The translations under genes were made by a program, and so were the position numbers. Below, piece by piece: positions 50,485 to 58,116 of a DNA stretch of 64,000 bases. Within the stretch, counting starts at the first letter, position 1; every line of letters begins with the position of its first letter. A model generated the notes under the pieces. It was not told the origin of the DNA. It searched no databases and worked only from the letters and a program-made list of their open reading frames with translations. The stretch covers positions 864,001-928,000 of the forward strand of contig OY969927.1 of NCBI GenBank assembly GCA_963704655.1. Reading direction: 5' to 3'. The stretch comes from an uncultured Candidatus Babeliaceae bacterium (GTDB lineage: Bacteria; Babelota; Babeliae; Babelales; Babelaceae).

Positions 50485-51012
50485 ATGATGAACATTCTTT
50501 TAGCCTTATTATTTGGGATTATTTTTGGGTTTTTATTACAAAAAGGTAACGTAAGCAACTTTAATGTTATTGTTGGCCAACTACTTTTTAAAAATATTAT
50601 CGTTTTAAATATTATCATGACGGCTATTATTGTTGGCGGCACGTTGATGTACGCATTAGTCGATTTAAACTTTATGAGCGCACTGCCCTTAAAAGCATCA
50701 AGTATGTATGGCTCGGCAATTGGCGGCCTTATTTTTGGCGTGGGCATGGCGGTTTTAGGCTATTGCCCGGGAACAGCGCTTGCTGCAATTGGGCAAGGAT
50801 CGAAAGATGCATTATTTGGCATTCTTGGCATGGCCACCGGCGCATTGTTATTCATTAAATGTAGCGACTTTCTGAAATCTACCATCTTGATCGATACACC
50901 AAACAATACTACTCTGCCGAATCTTTTAGGCGTATCACCCTATCTGATTTTTTTAATACTTGCGCTTGTTACCTTCGGTATAAACATGATATTTAATAAA
51001 ACGCGCGCATAA
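50485..51012 (+). CDS. YeeE/YedE family sulfur-compound transporter half
   Basis: FGFLLQKG, GGLIFGVG...GYCPGT. Confidence 0.88.
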   Translation: MMNILLALLFGIIFGFLLQKGNVSNFNVIVGQLLFKNIIVLNIIMTAIIVGGTLMYALVDLNFMSALPLKASSMYGSAIGGLIFGVGMAVLGYCPGTALAAIGQGSKDALFGILGMATGALLFIKCSDFLKSTILIDTPNNTTLPNLLGVSPYLIFLILALVTFGINMIFNKTRA

Positions 51013-51022
51013 AAAGATTAAC

Positions 51023-51113
51023 TTCTGGGCAATTGGTTGGAAAAATTGTAGACTTTTTCCAACCATAAAACTTTATCTTTAAGGGCCCGCCATGAATCCA
51101 GAAAAATTAAATA
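51023..51113 (+). repeat. Left direct repeat (copy of glyA upstream region and first 7 codons)
   Basis: 51059-51113 identical to 58062-58116 (55 bp); match extends to 51023/58026 at constant offset 7003. Confidence 0.95.
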
Positions 51114-51137
51114 CTTATAAATAATACGCACGCTTTT

Positions 51138-52124
51138 TTAGAAATCACAAAGTGATCTAATATATGGAATACCCAAAATAAAAGTTGCAATGGTAGTCCC
51201 TGCGCTAGCCATAGTGAATAATGATGACACCAAATGCACTTTATCATATATATCTCTTTTAGGGGCATCAGAATCTTTAGCACCTTTATACCCACGAGGA
51301 TACGATTTTATTTTTTTAATAAGTTGTACATCATCCAATGGTGCTTTAAATATAGCAATTAATTTTACCTGGCTTACAAAATCTTCAAGTTCTCGAATAC
51401 TCATGCCATCACTATAATATGCTAAATCATTTATGATATTTTTATCTTGATTTACCTCATATTTTTCAAACAAATTCATTAGGACTTCTTTCCTCATTTC
51501 TTTATTTGGTTGATCAATCTTTAACCGTTGTTGTTCTGGGAACCTACTGACAAATGCAGGGCTCAGTTTTTCGTACCTATTTGTTGCACAAATTATAAAA
51601 TAACGCGGATCATACTTAAATTTATCCAAATAAAGCCACAATTCCTGCATAGCTTTATTGTCTTCAACCCTAGATTCGTCAGAACCAACAATAGCTATTG
51701 CATCGATTTCATCGATAAAAATAACAACAGGTCTTCCACTTCCTGCCATCATTTCAAAAGCCTGACCCATTTCTTTTTTAATATTTTCAGCACCACTGCC
51801 AGCATACTTAGTAACAATTGATGGCGCGTTTATATGAACAAACTCACAATTTGCTACATTTGCTATCTGTCGTGCGAGCGTCGTCTTACCATTTCCTGGA
51901 GGCCCATACAAAAGTAATCTATTAGGAATTATAAGCGGTTTGGTAAAAGCATCTGAATCTACGAAGGTGATATTTTCGATTAACGGAATGCTTAACATTT
52001 TTACAATGTAATAAACTATCTCATGTTGCAAATAGATTGAATTATTTATTTCCCTAATATCTGCGCAACAAAACGTCTGCATAAAAATCGATATTAATAA
52101 CATTATATAAGAAAAAATATGCAT
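51138..52124 (-). CDS. Classical-clade AAA ATPase with N-terminal signal/anchor and C-terminal hydrophobic segment
   Basis: LLLYGPPGNGKT, pore loop TKYAG, IFIDEID, ATNR...SRF. Confidence 0.9.
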   Translation of the reverse strand: MHIFSYIMLLISIFMQTFCCADIREINNSIYLQHEIVYYIVKMLSIPLIENITFVDSDAFTKPLIIPNRLLLYGPPGNGKTTLARQIANVANCEFVHINAPSIVTKYAGSGAENIKKEMGQAFEMMAGSGRPVVIFIDEIDAIAIVGSDESRVEDNKAMQELWLYLDKFKYDPRYFIICATNRYEKLSPAFVSRFPEQQRLKIDQPNKEMRKEVLMNLFEKYEVNQDKNIINDLAYYSDGMSIRELEDFVSQVKLIAIFKAPLDDVQLIKKIKSYPRGYKGAKDSDAPKRDIYDKVHLVSSLFTMASAGTTIATFILGIPYIRSLCDF

Positions 52125-52133
52125 AAAATCCTT

Positions 52134-53153
52134 TTATTTACATCTCCTACATTTACAATAATCTGCAGAGTCCCTAGTTATATAATCATAAGCACCAACA
52201 GCGATCATATTGCCTACTAATCCAGGTAATCCTCCAGAAAACGCTCCGGCAAGAATGAAGACTGTTCTACCTGAATTTTTATTATCGCGAGCTATTGATC
52301 GTTTTTTTTCAATAATTTTTTCTAAAATTTCTTTACGCGTAAGCTTAGAATCGAATATCTGGGTTTTATTGATTTCAGCTATGAGGTTTTCTAAATCACG
52401 AATACTCAATGTATTACTATGGTAGGCTAAACAACTAAACCACTGATCTGCAATATCGGCATCATAATCTTTAGAAAATTTTATCAACATTTTCTCGCGC
52501 ATTGCTTCGCCTGGGTTATCAATATGTATCTTATGATCTTCTTCAAAGCGACTTAGAAAAACACTGTTCAAATCATCGAATCGATTTGTGGTACAGACTA
52601 CAAAAATACGCGGGTCATTTTTAAATTTATCTAAATATTGCCATAATTCTTGCAAAGCTCTTTCATTATCAGATGCTGAATCGCCTTTTCCTGTTATAGC
52701 AATAGCATCAATTTCATCTATTAACATAACGATGGGTCGCCCACTTTCGACAACCTTATCTAAAGCTTTTTTAAATTCTTTTTTAATATTTTCAGAACCA
52801 CTCCCTTGAAATTTCGTAACGATTCCTGGAGCACTAATATGAACAAATTCACAATCAGCAGCATCTGCGATTTCTCTGGCTAATGTTGATTTTCCGTTTC
52901 CAGGGGGCCCATACAAAAGCAATCTATTTGACACAACTAATGGTTTTGTAAAAGATACTGGATCTACCTCTAATATTGATTTTGCTAATGGCCTACTTAA
53001 AGCTTTAATAATATAACTTATTTGTTTAAACTGTGAGCCAACTATCAATTCTGTCTTGACTTTGGAAGCCGTTACCTGTACTGTTTCAGATCGACTATAA
53101 GAAAAAAAATGTGTACACAATAACAAGAAAATCAAACACGCTGAATTTAACAT
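52134..53153 (-). CDS. Classical-clade AAA ATPase with N-terminal signal/anchor and C-terminal hydrophobic segment (paralog)
   Basis: LLLYGPPGNGKS, TKFQG, MLIDEID, TTNR...SRF. Confidence 0.9.
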   Translation of the reverse strand: MLNSACLIFLLLCTHFFSYSRSETVQVTASKVKTELIVGSQFKQISYIIKALSRPLAKSILEVDPVSFTKPLVVSNRLLLYGPPGNGKSTLAREIADAADCEFVHISAPGIVTKFQGSGSENIKKEFKKALDKVVESGRPIVMLIDEIDAIAITGKGDSASDNERALQELWQYLDKFKNDPRIFVVCTTNRFDDLNSVFLSRFEEDHKIHIDNPGEAMREKMLIKFSKDYDADIADQWFSCLAYHSNTLSIRDLENLIAEINKTQIFDSKLTRKEILEKIIEKKRSIARDNKNSGRTVFILAGAFSGGLPGLVGNMIAVGAYDYITRDSADYCKCRRCK

Positions 53154-53250
53154 TATGGCCCATTCTAAATTTGATTCTTAAAAAAATAATAATTAAAAGA
53201 TACAAAAACATTGAAATAAAATCAATTAAGTAAAACAAAAAGATTAATTT

Positions 53251-55734
53251 ATGAAAAAAAATTATCAATTATTTCTATCTCTGATTTTTTTCACACTTTC
53301 TATCACTAATATCCTATCAAGATCTCAATTTAAAACTGCTACAAGTAGCTATGAAACTTACGCTCCTTCAACAGTGTTCACGGCTGGTGCGCTAATTTAT
53401 ACCGCCGCACAAGATTATTTTAAAGCACGTGGCTATTTATTCTCCACAAGCCAAGAAGTACAAGCTCAGATGCTCAAGATGTCGAATCAAGAATGGAAAT
53501 CTTTTGTTGAAACTAGTTTACTTAACGGCAAAAGCATAGAATCATTAACCTTTGCAGAACGACAAAAACTTTTTACAGCATATGAATTATATCAATATGA
53601 TGGCTACAGGCTATTAATGGCATCATTACCAGAATTCAAAAATTTTATATTGGGAAGCACCTACCAGCCAAGTAATGAGCAAAAGAAGTATTATAAAACT
53701 CCCATGCTCTACTCCAAGCAAAACCTTAAACTTATTTCTAGATACTATGATGGGAGGGTTACCCTAACTGGACAAGAAATTAATGACTTGCCTGATACCT
53801 TAAATGGTGAATCAATAGCCACTATTATCGGCAGGCAGGCCCCTAGGACATTTGGTGAATTTATGAATGAAGAAGCGGGTTATAGGACAAATTTACCTGC
53901 CCATTTTGACCCACGTCAACACCCTTTAGGATTATCAGCTGAAAAACAGCAAGAACTTGTTCGTGAGATAAAAAACAACTTTGCTGGCATACAAAATAAT
54001 AATTCTTTATTCGCCCCTCAAGTAGCAACGCAAGCGGATATTAAAGTTTTGCCTGTATTATCGCAAGATACATTACACATGTGCGAAGAAAAAAATATAG
54101 ATATTAACTTATTTTCCGCCACCTATGGAACAGTGGAGCAAAGTATTTTACATCAACAGTTTATTGATATCATTAACAAATCTGCAACAATCTATGTGCG
54201 TTATGAAAATTATAGTGAAGTTAAAAAATTAGCTCTTGGCGCAACACAATATAGTTTGGCAGGTATTTCACTTACCAAATCAAACAATATTCCCTTAGCA
54301 CAAGCTGCTCATAAAGCAGCAAGTTCTATTATTGCGCTCTTAGATGGCGTGCGTGAAGCTTGCGGCGATAAATTAAGCCAAGTTTGTAGTGCAGTAAGAA
54401 ACCCGGTGCAATTTGGGCGAGATATTGCAGATTTAGCACTCAATGCAAGCTCAGAAATTGCTATTTTTACTACGCAAGCACTTAATAACCCTGAAGTTCA
54501 AAAAACTATACTCACGATAATTGCCGATCCGCACCCTAGCTTTGCTATTAACTCAATTATTGCTACTAAAGTATGCAAAGAACTTGATACATACATGAAA
54601 ACACATACTATTGAACAGGCAGCTCATGCACTAGGAAAAGAAGCTACAGATCTCGTTCTTGATGCAATGATTTTTAATGCCGCCGGCAGAGCCGTTAAAA
54701 CTTTAAAAATCACCCAAAAATTAGGGTATGCAGGAAGACAAGCAGCAAAATTAGTCGGCTACTCGGTCATTAATAAAGCTGAAACTATAGAAAAAGCCAC
54801 ATTACTTTTAGCAGAAGCATCTCCAGAAGCTCTATCGGTCAACCCTATCGTACGCGCAGCCGTCGCTTCAGAAATTAAGTGTACACAGGCCATAAAAGAA
54901 ATAGGTTTTAAAACATTACCCAAAACAGTAACCCCTTTAGTTGAAGAATTAATCGCAGGCAATGGCCTTCCCAAATCATTTATTCCAAATACCAATACCT
55001 TAACTCTTGCACTTCAAGAAAATGGTGTTTACGAATTAAGCAAAACTGCAGACATTTTTGGAAATAAGTGGCAAAAAATCACAGCTGCCGGCGAAGAATT
55101 TTGGCAAATAACTCCGGCAAATAGCAAAGGAAGAGAATTCTTATTGCAGACCGAAAAAGAACTTATACAATCACCTGAAGCAATCTTTTCTGTTGAACCA
55201 ATTGTACCAACTCAAAGTCCTGTCTTTATCCCTGCTGTAATAACAGACGCAAACATGGGAATACCTCAAAAGACAGTCCGGATCGCAGAGTGTACTGAGA
55301 TAAAAGATGCACAATATATAACACTTCAAACAGGTGAAAGATGCCGCATCCCCTATCCAGAAAATGGCGTTACGAGGGAAATTGTATGGGGTCCTAAAAA
55401 ATATCAAGAAATTCGAGCTTTAAAAGATGACGTCGAAGTAATTGCACAAAATGTAAATATGCCCGTACATAAAATTCAACGAATTAAAAGTCATCTTTTT
55501 TATGACGACCATATTTTAAGAGATGGTAGCATTCGACCTTTTGACCCAAACTCTGAAATTGCAGCTGCCTGGGACCGTTTATACCGAGGCGACTTTGTTA
55601 AAAATGATATCCAACTATTAGAGCATGAATACTTTGAATCTAGATTTGAACGTTTATTTAAAACAGATTATGATACCGCCCACAAGGCAGCGCAAGATTT
55701 AAAAAGAGGCAGGCCTTGGGAATCTAACAAATAG
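53251..55734 (+). CDS. Secreted polymorphic-toxin-like protein with His/Glu-rich C-terminal domain
   Basis: Signal peptide, long Ala-rich helical trunk, terminal ~110 aa with IKSHLF..DH, FDP, AWDRL, LEHEYFE, AH; followed by small genes. Confidence 0.7.
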   Translation: MKKNYQLFLSLIFFTLSITNILSRSQFKTATSSYETYAPSTVFTAGALIYTAAQDYFKARGYLFSTSQEVQAQMLKMSNQEWKSFVETSLLNGKSIESLTFAERQKLFTAYELYQYDGYRLLMASLPEFKNFILGSTYQPSNEQKKYYKTPMLYSKQNLKLISRYYDGRVTLTGQEINDLPDTLNGESIATIIGRQAPRTFGEFMNEEAGYRTNLPAHFDPRQHPLGLSAEKQQELVREIKNNFAGIQNNNSLFAPQVATQADIKVLPVLSQDTLHMCEEKNIDINLFSATYGTVEQSILHQQFIDIINKSATIYVRYENYSEVKKLALGATQYSLAGISLTKSNNIPLAQAAHKAASSIIALLDGVREACGDKLSQVCSAVRNPVQFGRDIADLALNASSEIAIFTTQALNNPEVQKTILTIIADPHPSFAINSIIATKVCKELDTYMKTHTIEQAAHALGKEATDLVLDAMIFNAAGRAVKTLKITQKLGYAGRQAAKLVGYSVINKAETIEKATLLLAEASPEALSVNPIVRAAVASEIKCTQAIKEIGFKTLPKTVTPLVEELIAGNGLPKSFIPNTNTLTLALQENGVYELSKTADIFGNKWQKITAAGEEFWQITPANSKGREFLLQTEKELIQSPEAIFSVEPIVPTQSPVFIPAVITDANMGIPQKTVRIAECTEIKDAQYITLQTGERCRIPYPENGVTREIVWGPKKYQEIRALKDDVEVIAQNVNMPVHKIQRIKSHLFYDDHILRDGSIRPFDPNSEIAAAWDRLYRGDFVKNDIQLLEHEYFESRFERLFKTDYDTAHKAAQDLKRGRPWESNK

Positions 55735-55742
55735 GGAAAAGC

Positions 55743-56048
55743 ATGTACATTATTATGCATAAATTAAATGAAGATATATTGTATGTTACATACAAAATTG
55801 AAACGGATATTACCGCAGGACAATATATCAATGAACAAGGGAAAGAAAGAACTTCCTTTAAAACAATATTTGCTTATTGTAAGTTGAATAAACAGACTGA
55901 AGAGTTTTTTCTAGATATCAATAAAACTAATCCCTATTTTTTAGAACCGAATTCTCGAGAAATACGGCATGCGATGGCACAATTAATAAAAAGGGTCAGA
56001 GAGAAACAGCCATTTGAACAATCAATACACATTGCAACCGGGGGCTGA
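55743..56048 (+). CDS. Putative cognate immunity protein
   Basis: 101 aa, 8 bp after toxin stop, no signal peptide. Confidence 0.55.
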   Translation: MYIIMHKLNEDILYVTYKIETDITAGQYINEQGKERTSFKTIFAYCKLNKQTEEFFLDINKTNPYFLEPNSREIRHAMAQLIKRVREKQPFEQSIHIATGG

Positions 56049-56063
56049 CAATATCAGTGCAGA

Positions 56064-56437
56064 ATGAATAAAACAGCTATTCCTTTTGAAGAGTTTGAAA
56101 AAGCGGTTATTCGAAAGATTCTTGAGAAGAAGAGTGATGTGAATGAAATATTATGGGAACAATATATGGCATCTCAAGTAATTAAAAGAAATTTTACTGG
56201 AGTTGGGTTTTTTACCGATTTTAAAATACCAAAGGATGTGCCCCATGCTACTGAATTAATCGATCGTAGCTATGAAGATGTGGTAGCAAGTATAAATGGG
56301 TAGCACTTTCGATTTTGGGTTTGTTTTTATTCTTAGAAGATGGCATCATCTCGTGTTTAGAGGGTTATACGTGGGCTGACGCATGGCCAGAAACTATAAA
56401 AAACTATGATCTGAAACATTCCGATAATATTCTTTAG
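56064..56437 (+). pseudogene. Frameshifted immunity-like gene
   Basis: RNFTGVGFFTDF then, after removing one G (~56298-56300) and one T (~56324-56328), FVLFLEDGIISCLEGYTWADAWPE...*. Confidence 0.7.
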
Positions 56438-56511
56438 ACGCTATAAGTTATAGAATAAACAATGCATTTTCTACCCGCAACAAGCATGCTACTTAAAAAA
56501 ATGAAGGAATT

Positions 56512-57124
56512 ATGGAACATATTAAATCTATTTTACGTAATATTGAAAATAACCCAACTGAAGAAAATTCTATCGTATATTTTCCCGTATTGCGTGATTC
56601 AATTAACAATTCTTTAAAAGAGATACAACAATGCGATATATCAGAGCAAGCCGGTAATCAATTTAACCTATTAGAGGATATTGATTTTATTTTAACAAAA
56701 TTAACTTTTAAAGAAGTATCACTTCCAGAAGACTTAAAAAAAATTATTATTGACTTTGATCGCATAAACAGTCAAAAAATGGCGAGAATATTTATTTGAT
56801 AGAATTAAAAGTGAAAATTACTCTTTAAACAGCAAACCCCTACTATTAGATATAATTAATAATTTATTAGCAAAAATTGAATTTTGTGAAAATATTGAAA
56901 CTGCAAATATGTATTTTGATTTACTTCAAGATGCCCAATCGCGTGTATGCATTTTAGCTTTTGTAAAAAAAATAGAGGTATCCACTCAATTTTGGAAGTT
57001 TATTAAAGATTTCGATCGAATAGATGATAATGAATGGCGAGAATACCTATTTAATAAAATTAAAAAACACGAATATTCATTAGATGCGATACCAGCTTTA
57101 GATGAGCGGTTCTATAGCAAATAA
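56512..57124 (+). pseudogene. Frameshifted immunity-like gene with internal duplication
   Basis: Removing one A from A6 at 56774-56779 fuses two ORFs; repeat DFDRINSQKWREYLFDRIK / DFDRIDDNEWREYLFNKIK. Confidence 0.75.
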
Positions 57125-57165
57125 TAAGTATAGAAATTTTTATGTGGCTCTAAAGATAATAAAAC

Positions 57166-57531
57166 ATGGTAATCGTCAAAAAAATAACCCGATGTGGCGA
57201 TGGGTCTTGCCAAGAGGCCGACATTATCATTTCTGATGGGCAATTTGAAATATTGTGTTTTTGCCATCCCTGCTCATTGCAAGAAGGCCAAGAAATAACA
57301 TGGTCTCTTTACCCATTTAATGCAGATAATATTATGCGACCTTTTGAAAAAACTTATAAAGTGGAAAAAATTTTAAATGATTATTTTGCTTATAATTTCA
57401 TTGGTAAATTAATTGATAAAAAAAAGGGTATTGTTATTGTCGGCAAAATTAAATTTATGCTTGGTGGAATTCCACAAGATATTGAAGAATATGAGTTTAT
57501 ATCATTTAGCTGTTGCAGGGTTGATGTATAA
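57166..57531 (+). CDS. Putative orphan immunity protein
   Basis: 121 aa beta-rich, EADIIISDG..LCFCHPC; position in array. Confidence 0.55.
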   Translation: MVIVKKITRCGDGSCQEADIIISDGQFEILCFCHPCSLQEGQEITWSLYPFNADNIMRPFEKTYKVEKILNDYFAYNFIGKLIDKKKGIVIVGKIKFMLGGIPQDIEEYEFISFSCCRVDV

Positions 57532-57554
57532 ACTTTAAAAATCCCGCGGTAAAT

Positions 57555-57899
57555 ATGTCAAATTTTATTTTAAAAAACGATGTACCAATTTTACATTGCT
57601 CAAATTGGGCTTTGGAACTATTTCATGATTCTCTGAAAGCGGTAATCTATGAGCAAGGTTTGGAGAATAACAAAAAACTTATTAATTTTCTAGAAAAAAT
57701 CGATCAAGGTACCTATGGAAGAGGCTGTATTTATATTGAATTGAACGATTATTTTAATGATGATTTAGATAAATTACCCGTGCAGCTTCTTTATGATCTA
57801 ACAACTAAAACAATAGAAAAGATTGAACAACAATATTTTGGCGAATATCGAGAAAATTATTTAGCACTTTTAAATGGATTTAAAGACAAAATCTTATAA
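57555..57899 (+). CDS. Putative orphan immunity protein
   Basis: 114 aa acidic helical protein; position in array. Confidence 0.5.
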   Translation: MSNFILKNDVPILHCSNWALELFHDSLKAVIYEQGLENNKKLINFLEKIDQGTYGRGCIYIELNDYFNDDLDKLPVQLLYDLTTKTIEKIEQQYFGEYRENYLALLNGFKDKIL

Positions 57900-57943
57900 C
57901 ATCAAAGTGAACTTTTTTAACTTAAATATTGCTTTAAATTCCC

Positions 57944-57971
57944 AACACTTCGACTTCGCTCAGTGTGAGCG
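57944..57971. repeat. TTCGAC-N3-GCTCA palindromic repeat
   Basis: aacacttcgacttcgctcagtgtgagcg. Confidence 0.88.
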
Positions 57972-58025
57972 ACGGCTGATGCCCCGTCCAGAAATTAAGA
58001 CATTTTTTCCCTTATAACCATTCTT

Positions 58026-58116
58026 TTCTGGGCAATTAAAATATAAAATTGTACACTTTACCCAACCATAAAACTTTATCTTTAAGGGCCCGCCATGAAT
58101 CCAGAAAAATTAAATA
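58026..58116 (+). repeat. Right direct repeat (actual glyA start)
   Basis: Counterpart of 51023-51113. Confidence 0.95.

Follow-up and report, generated by a model that had tools for sequence, protein, structure and literature searches.

A 64,000-nucleotide stretch of a contig from an uncultured Candidatus Babeliaceae bacterium, hereafter the window, carries on its reverse strand two adjacent genes, ORF2 and ORF1, whose products each combine a hydrophobic N-terminus, a single ATPase module of the AAA class and a late, weakly hydrophobic helix (Table 1). The two proteins are tandem paralogues (48% identity over 261 residues), and since the genes adjoin each other, with a gap of 9 nt between the ORF2 stop codon and the ORF1 ATG (position 52124) and the sequence AAGGA 4 nt 5' of that ATG, they are probably expressed as a single transcription unit. 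A scan of positions 50900-53400 for promoters and terminators returned fewer promoter-like sites than were found in shuffled sequences, and one terminator-like site, which lies within ORF2. The public gene call for ORF1 (P0001, 314 aa) begins at Met15 and is therefore devoid of the hydrophobic N-terminus, but the longer start, which yields a protein of 328 aa, is better supported by the position of the Shine-Dalgarno sequence and by the N-termini of the closest ORF1 homologues, P0002 and P0003, both of which start with such a segment.

Both proteins match the Pfam AAA family PF00004 (ORF1, E 3.7e-31 and 108.7 bits; ORF2, E 3.4e-30 and 105.6 bits; gathering score 21.2). An earlier reading of this DNA made from its letters (the sequence-only reading) had described the two products as threading-type AAA ATPases without a protease domain, and the Pfam scan of both proteins indeed returned AAA-type domains only, with no peptidase domain. 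Every motif string that it had quoted is present at verified coordinates, namely GPPGNGKT, IDEID, KYAG and TNR...SRF in ORF1 and GPPGNGKS, DEID, KFQG and TNR...SRF in ORF2, as are the two hydrophobic C-terminal strings given in Table 1.

Table 1. Coordinates of the ORF1/ORF2 pair, of their sequence features and of the surrounding island (positions are those of the window).
Feature	Position	Strand	Remark
ORF2	52134..53153	-	339 aa: signal-like N-terminus, AAA module, Gly/Ala-rich C-terminal helix, Cys/Lys/Arg-rich end CKCRRCK
ORF1	51138..52124	-	328 aa: signal-like N-terminus, AAA module, Ser/Thr/Ala-rich C-terminal helix
ORF1 residues 1-21, MHIFSYIMLLISIFMQTFCCA	52062..52124	-	signal-peptide-like; no Lys/Arg before the core
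ORF2 residues 1-20, MLNSACLIFLLLCTHFFSYS	53094..53153	-	signal-peptide-like; no Lys/Arg before the core
ORF1 Walker A, GPPGNGKT	51882..51905	-	Lys in 73/73 family members
ORF1 pore loop 1, KYAG	51798..51809	-	aromatic residue (Tyr/Phe) in 70/73; Gly in 62/73
ORF1 Walker B, IDEID	51702..51716	-	Asp in 73/73, Glu in 72/73
ORF1 Arg194, sole retained arginine finger	51543..51545	-	Arg in 72/73; preceding position Asp/Ser/Thr in 68/73
ORF1 Arg244, lid	51393..51395	-	Arg in 71/73; aligned to the Ala of 'GAD' in the archaeal VCP-like ATPase 5vc7
ORF2 Walker A, GPPGNGKS	52887..52910	-	motif match
ORF2 pore loop 1, KFQG	52803..52814	-	motif match
ORF2 Walker B, DEID	52707..52718	-	motif match
ORF1 C-terminal uncharged helix, residues 296-322, VHLVSSLFTMASAGTTIATFILGIPYI	51159..51239	-	model and family comparison
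ORF2 C-terminal uncharged helix, residues 297-322, TVFILAGAFSGGLPGLVGNMIAVGAY	52188..52265	-	family comparison
ORF1 hydrophobic C-terminal string of the sequence-only reading, LVSSLFTMASAGTTIATFILGI	in ORF1	-	present in translation
ORF2 hydrophobic C-terminal string of the sequence-only reading, VFILAGAFSGGLPGLVGNMIAVG	in ORF2	-	present in translation
Accessory island, 7,003 bp	51114..58116	.	contains ORF1 and ORF2, six small orphan ORFs and a signal-bearing orphan of 827 aa; missing from a genome of the same genus
Direct repeat, left copy (~105 nt)	51010..51113	+	glyA promoter region and first 22 nt of coding sequence
Direct repeat, right copy	58013..58116	+	runs into intact glyA (SHMT), start 58095

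The family to which ORF1 and ORF2 belong was defined by aligning 29 sequences and by searching 1.84 billion representatives with a profile, and the conservation counts reported here refer to its 73 distinct members, which are mostly single-AAA proteins of 300-460 residues; all the named members are Babeliales, TM6 or Dependentiae. Walker A and Walker B are intact in both ORF1 and ORF2, and each protein also retains sensor 1 (its Asn is kept in 72 of the 73 members), a pore loop with an aromatic residue and one arginine finger. The AlphaFold2 model, with a mean predicted local distance difference test score (pLDDT) of 86, comprises an ordinary AAA module and helical lid; residues 283-288 then form a disordered linker, which leads into a long helix at the C-terminus. 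A Foldseek search with this model ranked the AAA modules of archaeal Vps4, spastin, PAN and p97 highest. Because the motifs are conserved across the family and the predicted fold is that of an AAA module, the motor looks competent and is almost certainly a functional ATPase of the threading type. The best NCBIfam matches, to CdvC, PAN, CDC48 and FtsH, all fall far under the family cut-offs: the CdvC/Vps4 model NF041006, the best NCBIfam match of ORF1, scored 113.6 bits with ORF1 and 90.0 with ORF2 (cut-off 650), and the FtsH model TIGR01241 scored 84.5 and 81.5 bits (cut-off 600). The assignment of both proteins to the pore-loop ATPases of the classic AAA clade thus stands, on Pfam, NCBIfam and structure matches as well as on conservation.

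The active site of the family appears to be laid out in an unusual manner, with a single arginine finger combined with an arginine at the sensor-2 position. When aligned to VAT, the second finger position of the second region of homology is occupied by Asp, Ser or Thr in 68 of the 73 members and by Arg in one. The lid arginine, found in 71, departs from the classic-AAA 'GAD' pattern, which is without a sensor-2 arginine; the alignment column of ORF1 Arg244 is what we take to be the sensor-2 position, at which classic AAA proteins have no Arg.

Phylogenetic reconstruction, which the sequence-only reading had proposed as a check, placed the family on a branch of its own within the classic AAA proteins, separate from FtsH, PAN, Cdc48 and CdvC. 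With FastTree, 99 AAA cores resolved the family as a clade of 75 rows (support 99), within which ORF1, ORF2 and P0002-P0006 form a subclade of seven rows (support 100) that has ORF2 as the long-branched sister of the others. An IQ-TREE 'quick' tree likewise put the family on one side of a branch with a Shimodaira-Hasegawa-like approximate likelihood ratio test (SH-aLRT) value of 99, and FtsH, PAN, Cdc48 D1, Cdc48 D2 and CdvC outside it; the reference sequences were drawn from our own matches and left out Msp1, katanin, Bcs1 and Yme1. Among the 257 proteins retrieved, the best matches of ORF2 were proteins of the ORF1 group (43-52% identity), and no ORF2 orthologue was found. A motif-pattern search of genome contigs led almost wholly to archaeal or unrelated AAA genes (77 of 79 distinct loci), the two that looked related being L031 and L032, and the ESM Atlas returned generic AAA clusters only.

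In a profile scan of 151 Dependentiae genomes, matches at E<=1e-60 occurred in 11; the tally at E 1e-40 (113 of the 151 genomes) also takes in FtsH and other AAA proteins and is no count of the family. Adding fetched weaker places that fall inside the family clade to those at E<=1e-60 gives at least 17 genomes with a family member. Up to nine matches at E<=1e-40 occur in one genome (G144), a number of matches rather than of copies, and tandem arrays of the family are found in G144, G090, G114 and G035; similar arrays in G095 and G108 fall in a neighbouring clade. In the tree, the tandem copies of other genomes cluster genome by genome, an indication that they were duplicated independently. For many members of the fetched loci, the ~4 kb retrieved holds no paralogue from the family, an in-frame stop is flagged at three of the family places listed, and the comparison of neighbourhoods left out the contigs of P0002-P0005, the closest homologues.

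We then come to the two ends of the proteins, on which their location depends. A hydrophobic N-terminal core, defined as a Kyte-Doolittle 12-residue mean (KD12) >=1.6 within the first 50 residues by heuristics of our own, is present in both ORF1 and ORF2 and kept in 69 of the 73 members, and the sequence of this core is unconserved. The four members without it include P0006, which is a fragment, L110_414, a copy that has no N-terminal segment and whose match has an in-frame stop, and P0036, a mis-started gene call (the signal is present in its near-identical copy in L111). Across the family, the median length of the uncharged run is 18 residues (range 12-27); Lys or Arg stands ahead of the core in 63 of the 73 members, and the 15 residues that follow it carry a net charge <=0 in 51. 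Many members resemble an AxA cleavage site followed by acidic residues (...NPAIA/DENAY, ...APVIA/DQMP), several have linkers rich in Pro, Glu and Gln between the signal and the AAA module, and in all 73 the signal-like segment precedes the AAA module, from which no further strongly hydrophobic segment separates it. On account of the Lys/Arg residues of the n-region, the short hydrophobic (h) region, the neutral or acidic flank and the unconserved sequence, the N-terminus of the family looks like a Sec-type signal peptide.

The C-terminal helix is conserved as well, but it is much less hydrophobic than the membrane helices of transporters encoded in the window. An uncharged segment with a Kyte-Doolittle 17-residue mean >=1.2 is found in 60 of the 73 members (>=1.5 in 47 and >=1.8 in 21), with a median uncharged run of 24 residues that ends a median of 10.5 residues from the C-terminus; Gly, Ala, Ser and Thr make up 37% of the helix. 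At least one Lys or Arg comes after the helix in 51 of those 60 members, and the mean net charge is +1.03 after it versus +0.5 before. The corresponding 17-residue means for ORF1 (1.52) and ORF2 (1.71) are comparable to those of strands in the AAA core. On an approximate Hessa-type scale, applied to the best 19-residue window unless stated otherwise, the C-tails of ORF1 and ORF2 score +1.9 and +5.1 kcal/mol, and those of the family have a median of +4.8 kcal/mol and fall below 0 in 2 of the 73 members; as controls, the medians are +0.4 for the membrane helices of these transporters and +11 for soluble AAA core. The hydrophobic C-tails described in the sequence-only reading are thus real and conserved, but the segments appear only marginally hydrophobic, and a confident call of transmembrane anchors is unwarranted. 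A helical stripe of small residues or an amphipathic periodicity in the tails lacks statistical support (z>1.64 in 14 of 60 members; ORF1 0.27, ORF2 1.02). No NCBIfam model of a C-terminal sorting domain (GlyGly-CTERM, PEP-CTERM, LPXTG) matched the last 60 residues at E values up to 10, and Rhomboid, Exosortase_EpsH and Sortase had no match in the bacterium's own genome, which is 96% complete.

In published accounts, Dependentiae are energy parasites of protists. The genome that contains the window (G000, a single contig of 1.298 Mb) matches this picture: it encodes two ATP/ADP translocases (TLC) and has two secretin genes, and so looks equipped for protein export and for the uptake of host ATP. 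The TLC translocases presumably must draw ATP from the periplasm, so the periplasm would contain ATP; the premise of the sequence-only reading that this compartment lacks ATP is accordingly doubtful here, although uptake from the periplasm is itself something that we infer. Among the 987 ORFs of >=150 aa in this genome, 494 have a signal- or anchor-like N-terminus by a crude heuristic (an earlier, laxer threshold had flagged 62% of the ORFs), which is close to the 44% reported for Chromulinavorax destructans (PMC6561590). A signal-like N-terminus is not unusual for this organism.

ORF1 and ORF2 lie in an accessory island bounded by direct repeats, which share a 72-nt core at 96% identity and are spaced exactly 7,003 nt apart. 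Since the repeat consists of the glyA promoter region together with the start of the glyA coding sequence, the segment entered at the 5' end of glyA. In a genome of the same genus (G059, 94% complete), the genes for EF-P, RluB, two ABC-2 permeases and an ABC ATPase adjoin glyA, with ~270 bp separating the ABC ATPase gene from glyA; identity to the counterparts in the window is ~64% for the permeases and ~90% for the remaining proteins, and G059 lacks everything that occupies 49.7-58.1 kb of the window. The GC content is 0.31-0.37 over 52-58 kb versus about 0.38 elsewhere. No tRNA gene lies near the island, no integrase was found, and island ORFs other than ORF1 and ORF2 carry no Pfam domain. 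Among sequencing runs none with RNA was listed; the matches were short DNA contigs of low depth, some of which agree fully with portions of the island, and none showed a junction across it. Being island-borne, absent from a genome of the same genus, patchily distributed and found in tandem arrays, ORF1 and ORF2 seem to behave like accessory host-interaction genes.

We favour the reading that ORF1 and ORF2 are exported, host-directed, membrane-tethered unfoldases, to which we tentatively assign a probability of about 0.45. A Sec-type signal peptide would take the AAA module out of the bacterial cytoplasm, and release toward the host would most likely proceed through a type II secretion system or outer-membrane vesicles; in the host, the subunits would form rings, consume host ATP and thread their targets through the aromatic pore loops, and the weakly hydrophobic C-terminal helix would hold the motor at a membrane. 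The parts of this scheme that we infer are export and its path, the membrane that is targeted, the formation of rings and the identity of the substrates. We rank export first because the signal has been kept over deep divergence, the genes are accessory, the tail is weak and there is a precedent in Babela massiliensis, nine signal-bearing AAA-Ulp1 proteins of which are proposed to act in the amoeba cytoplasm (PMC4378268). The tails would be too weak to be likely stop-transfer anchors for Sec, and so they are compatible with passage through the inner membrane. Action in the host cytosol was one of the two options offered by the sequence-only reading, and the charge pattern, the length of the h-region and the precedent in Dependentiae tip the balance towards export.

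Several observations weigh against export to the host. ORF1 and ORF2 are themselves among the 10 of the 73 members that have no Lys or Arg before the core, and the 15 residues after the core of ORF2 carry a net charge of +1, which leaves its orientation signal ambiguous; a simple -3/-1 cleavage rule fires in 71 of the 73 members, often inside the h-region, and does not discriminate. With about half of the genome's ORFs looking signal-bearing, a signal marks envelope proteins as much as effectors. Ring assembly would have to follow export. Tandem duplication is the sole conserved feature of the neighbourhoods, and the divergent 827-aa neighbour of the pair was matched in 1 of 25 other genomes of the same taxonomic family, by its C-terminal domain only. 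Moreover, a signal followed by a C-terminal helix and then by Lys or Arg (51 of 60) is also the layout of a type I inner-membrane protein, and the same topogenic signals would fit a motor that faces the periplasm as well as they fit an exported one. In such an arrangement the signal would export the AAA module, the basic-flanked C-terminal helix would anchor it, and host ATP in the periplasm, whose presence the two TLC genes would imply, would power the unfolding or movement of envelope proteins, much as in the i-AAA of mitochondria, which faces the intermembrane space. The signal-like N-terminus in 69 of the 73 members, the rise in charge across the helix and the basic, Cys-rich tail in which ORF2 terminates are all in keeping with it. 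Stop-transfer by tails of +4.8 kcal/mol, as against +0.4 for the membrane helices of transporters and with only two of the 73 below 0, is doubtful, however, accessory, island-borne and patchy genes are unlike core envelope machinery, and no bacterial AAA+ unfoldase of the periplasm is known to us, although our literature searches were not aimed at proving that none exists, so that we regard a periplasm-facing motor as unlikely.

We hold it to be just as unlikely that the motor works in the bacterial cytoplasm, held by an uncleaved N-terminal anchor in the N-out orientation, where, like Msp1 or FtsH, it would extract or unfold membrane proteins, its C-terminal helix dipping back into the membrane. 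Nearly all characterised AAA unfoldases work where ATP is made or imported, the charges around the cores of ORF1 and ORF2 would permit N-out insertion of both, and in the AlphaFold2 model the N-terminal segment is helical with high confidence (pLDDT 91 over the first ten residues and 80 over the next ten). The charge pattern of the family is nevertheless the reverse of that expected for an N-out anchor, with Lys or Arg before the core in most members and a net charge <=0 after it in 51 of the 73; the h-regions are short, with a best 13-residue window below 0 kcal/mol on the Hessa-type scale in only 40 of the 73; the linkers rich in Pro, Glu and Gln seen in several members are typical of exported proteins; and no second membrane segment precedes the AAA domain. 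The membrane-anchored cytoplasmic extractase that the sequence-only reading had put forward as its other option therefore runs contrary to the family pattern. Whether ORF1 and ORF2 form an obligate heterohexamer is a question separate from location. The short distance between the genes, their probable co-transcription, the 48% identity of the products and the intact catalytic motifs in both would suit such a complex, but the lack of an ORF2 orthologue among the 257 retrieved proteins, the position of ORF2 as a long-branched sister of the ORF1 group, the many members without a paralogue within the ~4 kb fetched and the grouping of tandem copies by genome make it improbable; the earlier suggestion of a possible heterohexamer is unsupported, since ORF2 has no relative closer than the ORF1 group and the duplications look independent. 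Least probable of all, and in our view a long shot, is a self-contained extracytoplasmic translocase, in which a six-subunit ring would co-insert its six C-terminal helices, rich in small residues, into a bacterial or host membrane and thread proteins across it at the expense of host ATP, as a one-polypeptide counterpart of the Plasmodium translocon of exported proteins (PTEX). The sequence-only reading as a whole is partly supported: the classic threading AAA module, the conserved ends and the option of export survive, and the cytoplasmic anchor, the heterohexamer, the ATP-free periplasm and the C-tails as membrane anchors are weakened or unsupported.

Comparison with known AAA systems sets the family somewhat apart from each of them. 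The best fold matches are to 4d81 and 4d82 (Vps4, E 2.7e-16), 6p11 and 3b9p (spastin), and, as in the Vps4/CdvC-meiotic group, the second region of homology is without the Pro-Gly insertion of Cdc48 and FtsH; ORF1 and ORF2 nevertheless score far under the 650-bit cut-off, have no match to the MIT domain, retain one arginine finger and fall on a separate branch. To our knowledge, the signal peptide and the C-tail are absent from Vps4, CdvC and spastin. The best profile match among structures is 5vc7 (E 2.3e-81; D1 and D2), and the family has its Walker motifs, its pore loop and sensor 1 in common with VAT, p97/Cdc48 and Afg2; unlike VAT and p97/Cdc48, the family has one AAA module instead of two, no N-domain, 'LDRFG' in place of 'LRPGRFD' and the lid Arg (71/73) in place of the Ala of 'GAD', and its branch is separate from both Cdc48 D1 and Cdc48 D2. 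FtsH, of which the own genome has proteins of the same type, is likewise membrane-attached and built on an AAA module of the classic clade, but ORF1 and ORF2 have neither the M41 peptidase domain nor the paired N-terminal membrane helices, and again branch separately.

Msp1/ATAD1 is a minimal, protease-less classic AAA protein with a single ring in the cytosol and an uncleaved N-terminal anchor. It resembles the family in its single ring, its one terminal tether helix and the absence of a protease domain, and differs in that the N-terminus of the family looks cleavable and the possible tether is C-terminal; Msp1 was not in the tree. HSP101 of the Plasmodium PTEX is a two-ring protein of the ClpB type that has a signal peptide and works with a separate pore protein, and Yme1, the mitochondrial i-AAA, combines a protease domain with an anchor at the N-terminus. 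These two AAA+ unfoldases operate outside the compartment of their synthesis, in a space of an intracellular parasite or an organelle that contains ATP, which makes them analogues of the arrangement proposed here, with homology confined to the AAA fold. AAA+ unfoldases are usually regarded as cytoplasmic, since ATP is lacking in bacteria outside that compartment. Dependentiae take up ATP from the host and send out a very large part of their proteome; a conserved family made up of a signal peptide, a bare AAA motor and a tether helix would imply that they put unfolding machines driven by ATP into the host, or into an envelope of their own that is filled with ATP, and such effectors or envelope machines would form a new class. 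The layout of a single finger with an Arg at the sensor-2 position is of interest for the mechanism of AAA proteins, and structural work could make use of the family as a minimal motor of ~300 residues. Should the N-terminus turn out to be a plain anchor, the finding shrinks to a lineage-specific membrane AAA protein.

The closest precedent comes from the same phylum, in Babela massiliensis (Pagnier et al., 2015; PMC4378268). The Babela AAA-Ulp1 proteins likewise carry an AAA module after a predicted, albeit atypical, signal peptide, and they form an expanded, lineage-specific set for which secretion via the type II system, the only secretion system, was proposed (PMC4378268). By that published description they are fused to a permuted Ulp1-like C48 peptidase, and this sets them apart from ORF1 and ORF2, which have a single domain and a weakly hydrophobic helix (Pagnier et al., 2015). 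Signal-bearing AAA proteins in Dependentiae were therefore already published in 2015; a literature search found no paper on the architecture and active-site variant of the present family.

Within the island, the 827-aa protein (53251-55734, forward strand) has a signal-like N-terminus and no Pfam or NCBIfam match; only its last ~135 residues recur, at 48% identity, inside a 1450-aa open frame of one other genome (G152). Its gene is followed by the six small orphan ORFs (55743-57899, forward strand), which occupy the part of the window with the lowest GC content, and the layout, in which small genes come after a modular C-terminal domain, resembles that of polymorphic toxin-immunity loci. On the other side of the pair, two adjoining half-size Sulf_transp genes (PF04143; 49949-51012, forward strand) match first the C-terminal and then the N-terminal half of the Pfam model; the second was not found in two genomes of the same genus, and neither was matched in the syntenic stretch of G059.

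Other AAA proteins came to light alongside the family. The top matches of the profile include P0121-P0133, very long proteins (up to 2,350 aa) with four to eight AAA modules each and in many cases a hydrophobic N-terminus, which do not have the LW..LD motif of the family. A set of proteins of ~330 aa, with a signal, ~100 further residues and an AAA module but no tail, is found in other Dependentiae genomes at L015, L018, L020, L021, L024 and L026-L029, outside the family clade. The own genome encodes a third small signal-bearing AAA protein (G000:C1:643331-644338), which has no C-terminal helix and may be a hydrolysis-dead relative, as its Walker B reads 'DY' instead of 'DE'. Also encoded there is a 787-aa protein (G000:C1:244585-246948) in which a signal-like N-terminus and a long N-terminal region, interrupted by or next to no known domain, are joined to a hydrophobic stretch in the interior, an AAA module of divergent sequence and a C-terminal region like that of FtsH, as well as an FtsH-type protein of 895 aa (G000:C1:536564-539251) with two full tandem AAA modules ahead of an M41-like part; similar open frames of ~890 aa occur in many genomes of the phylum scan.

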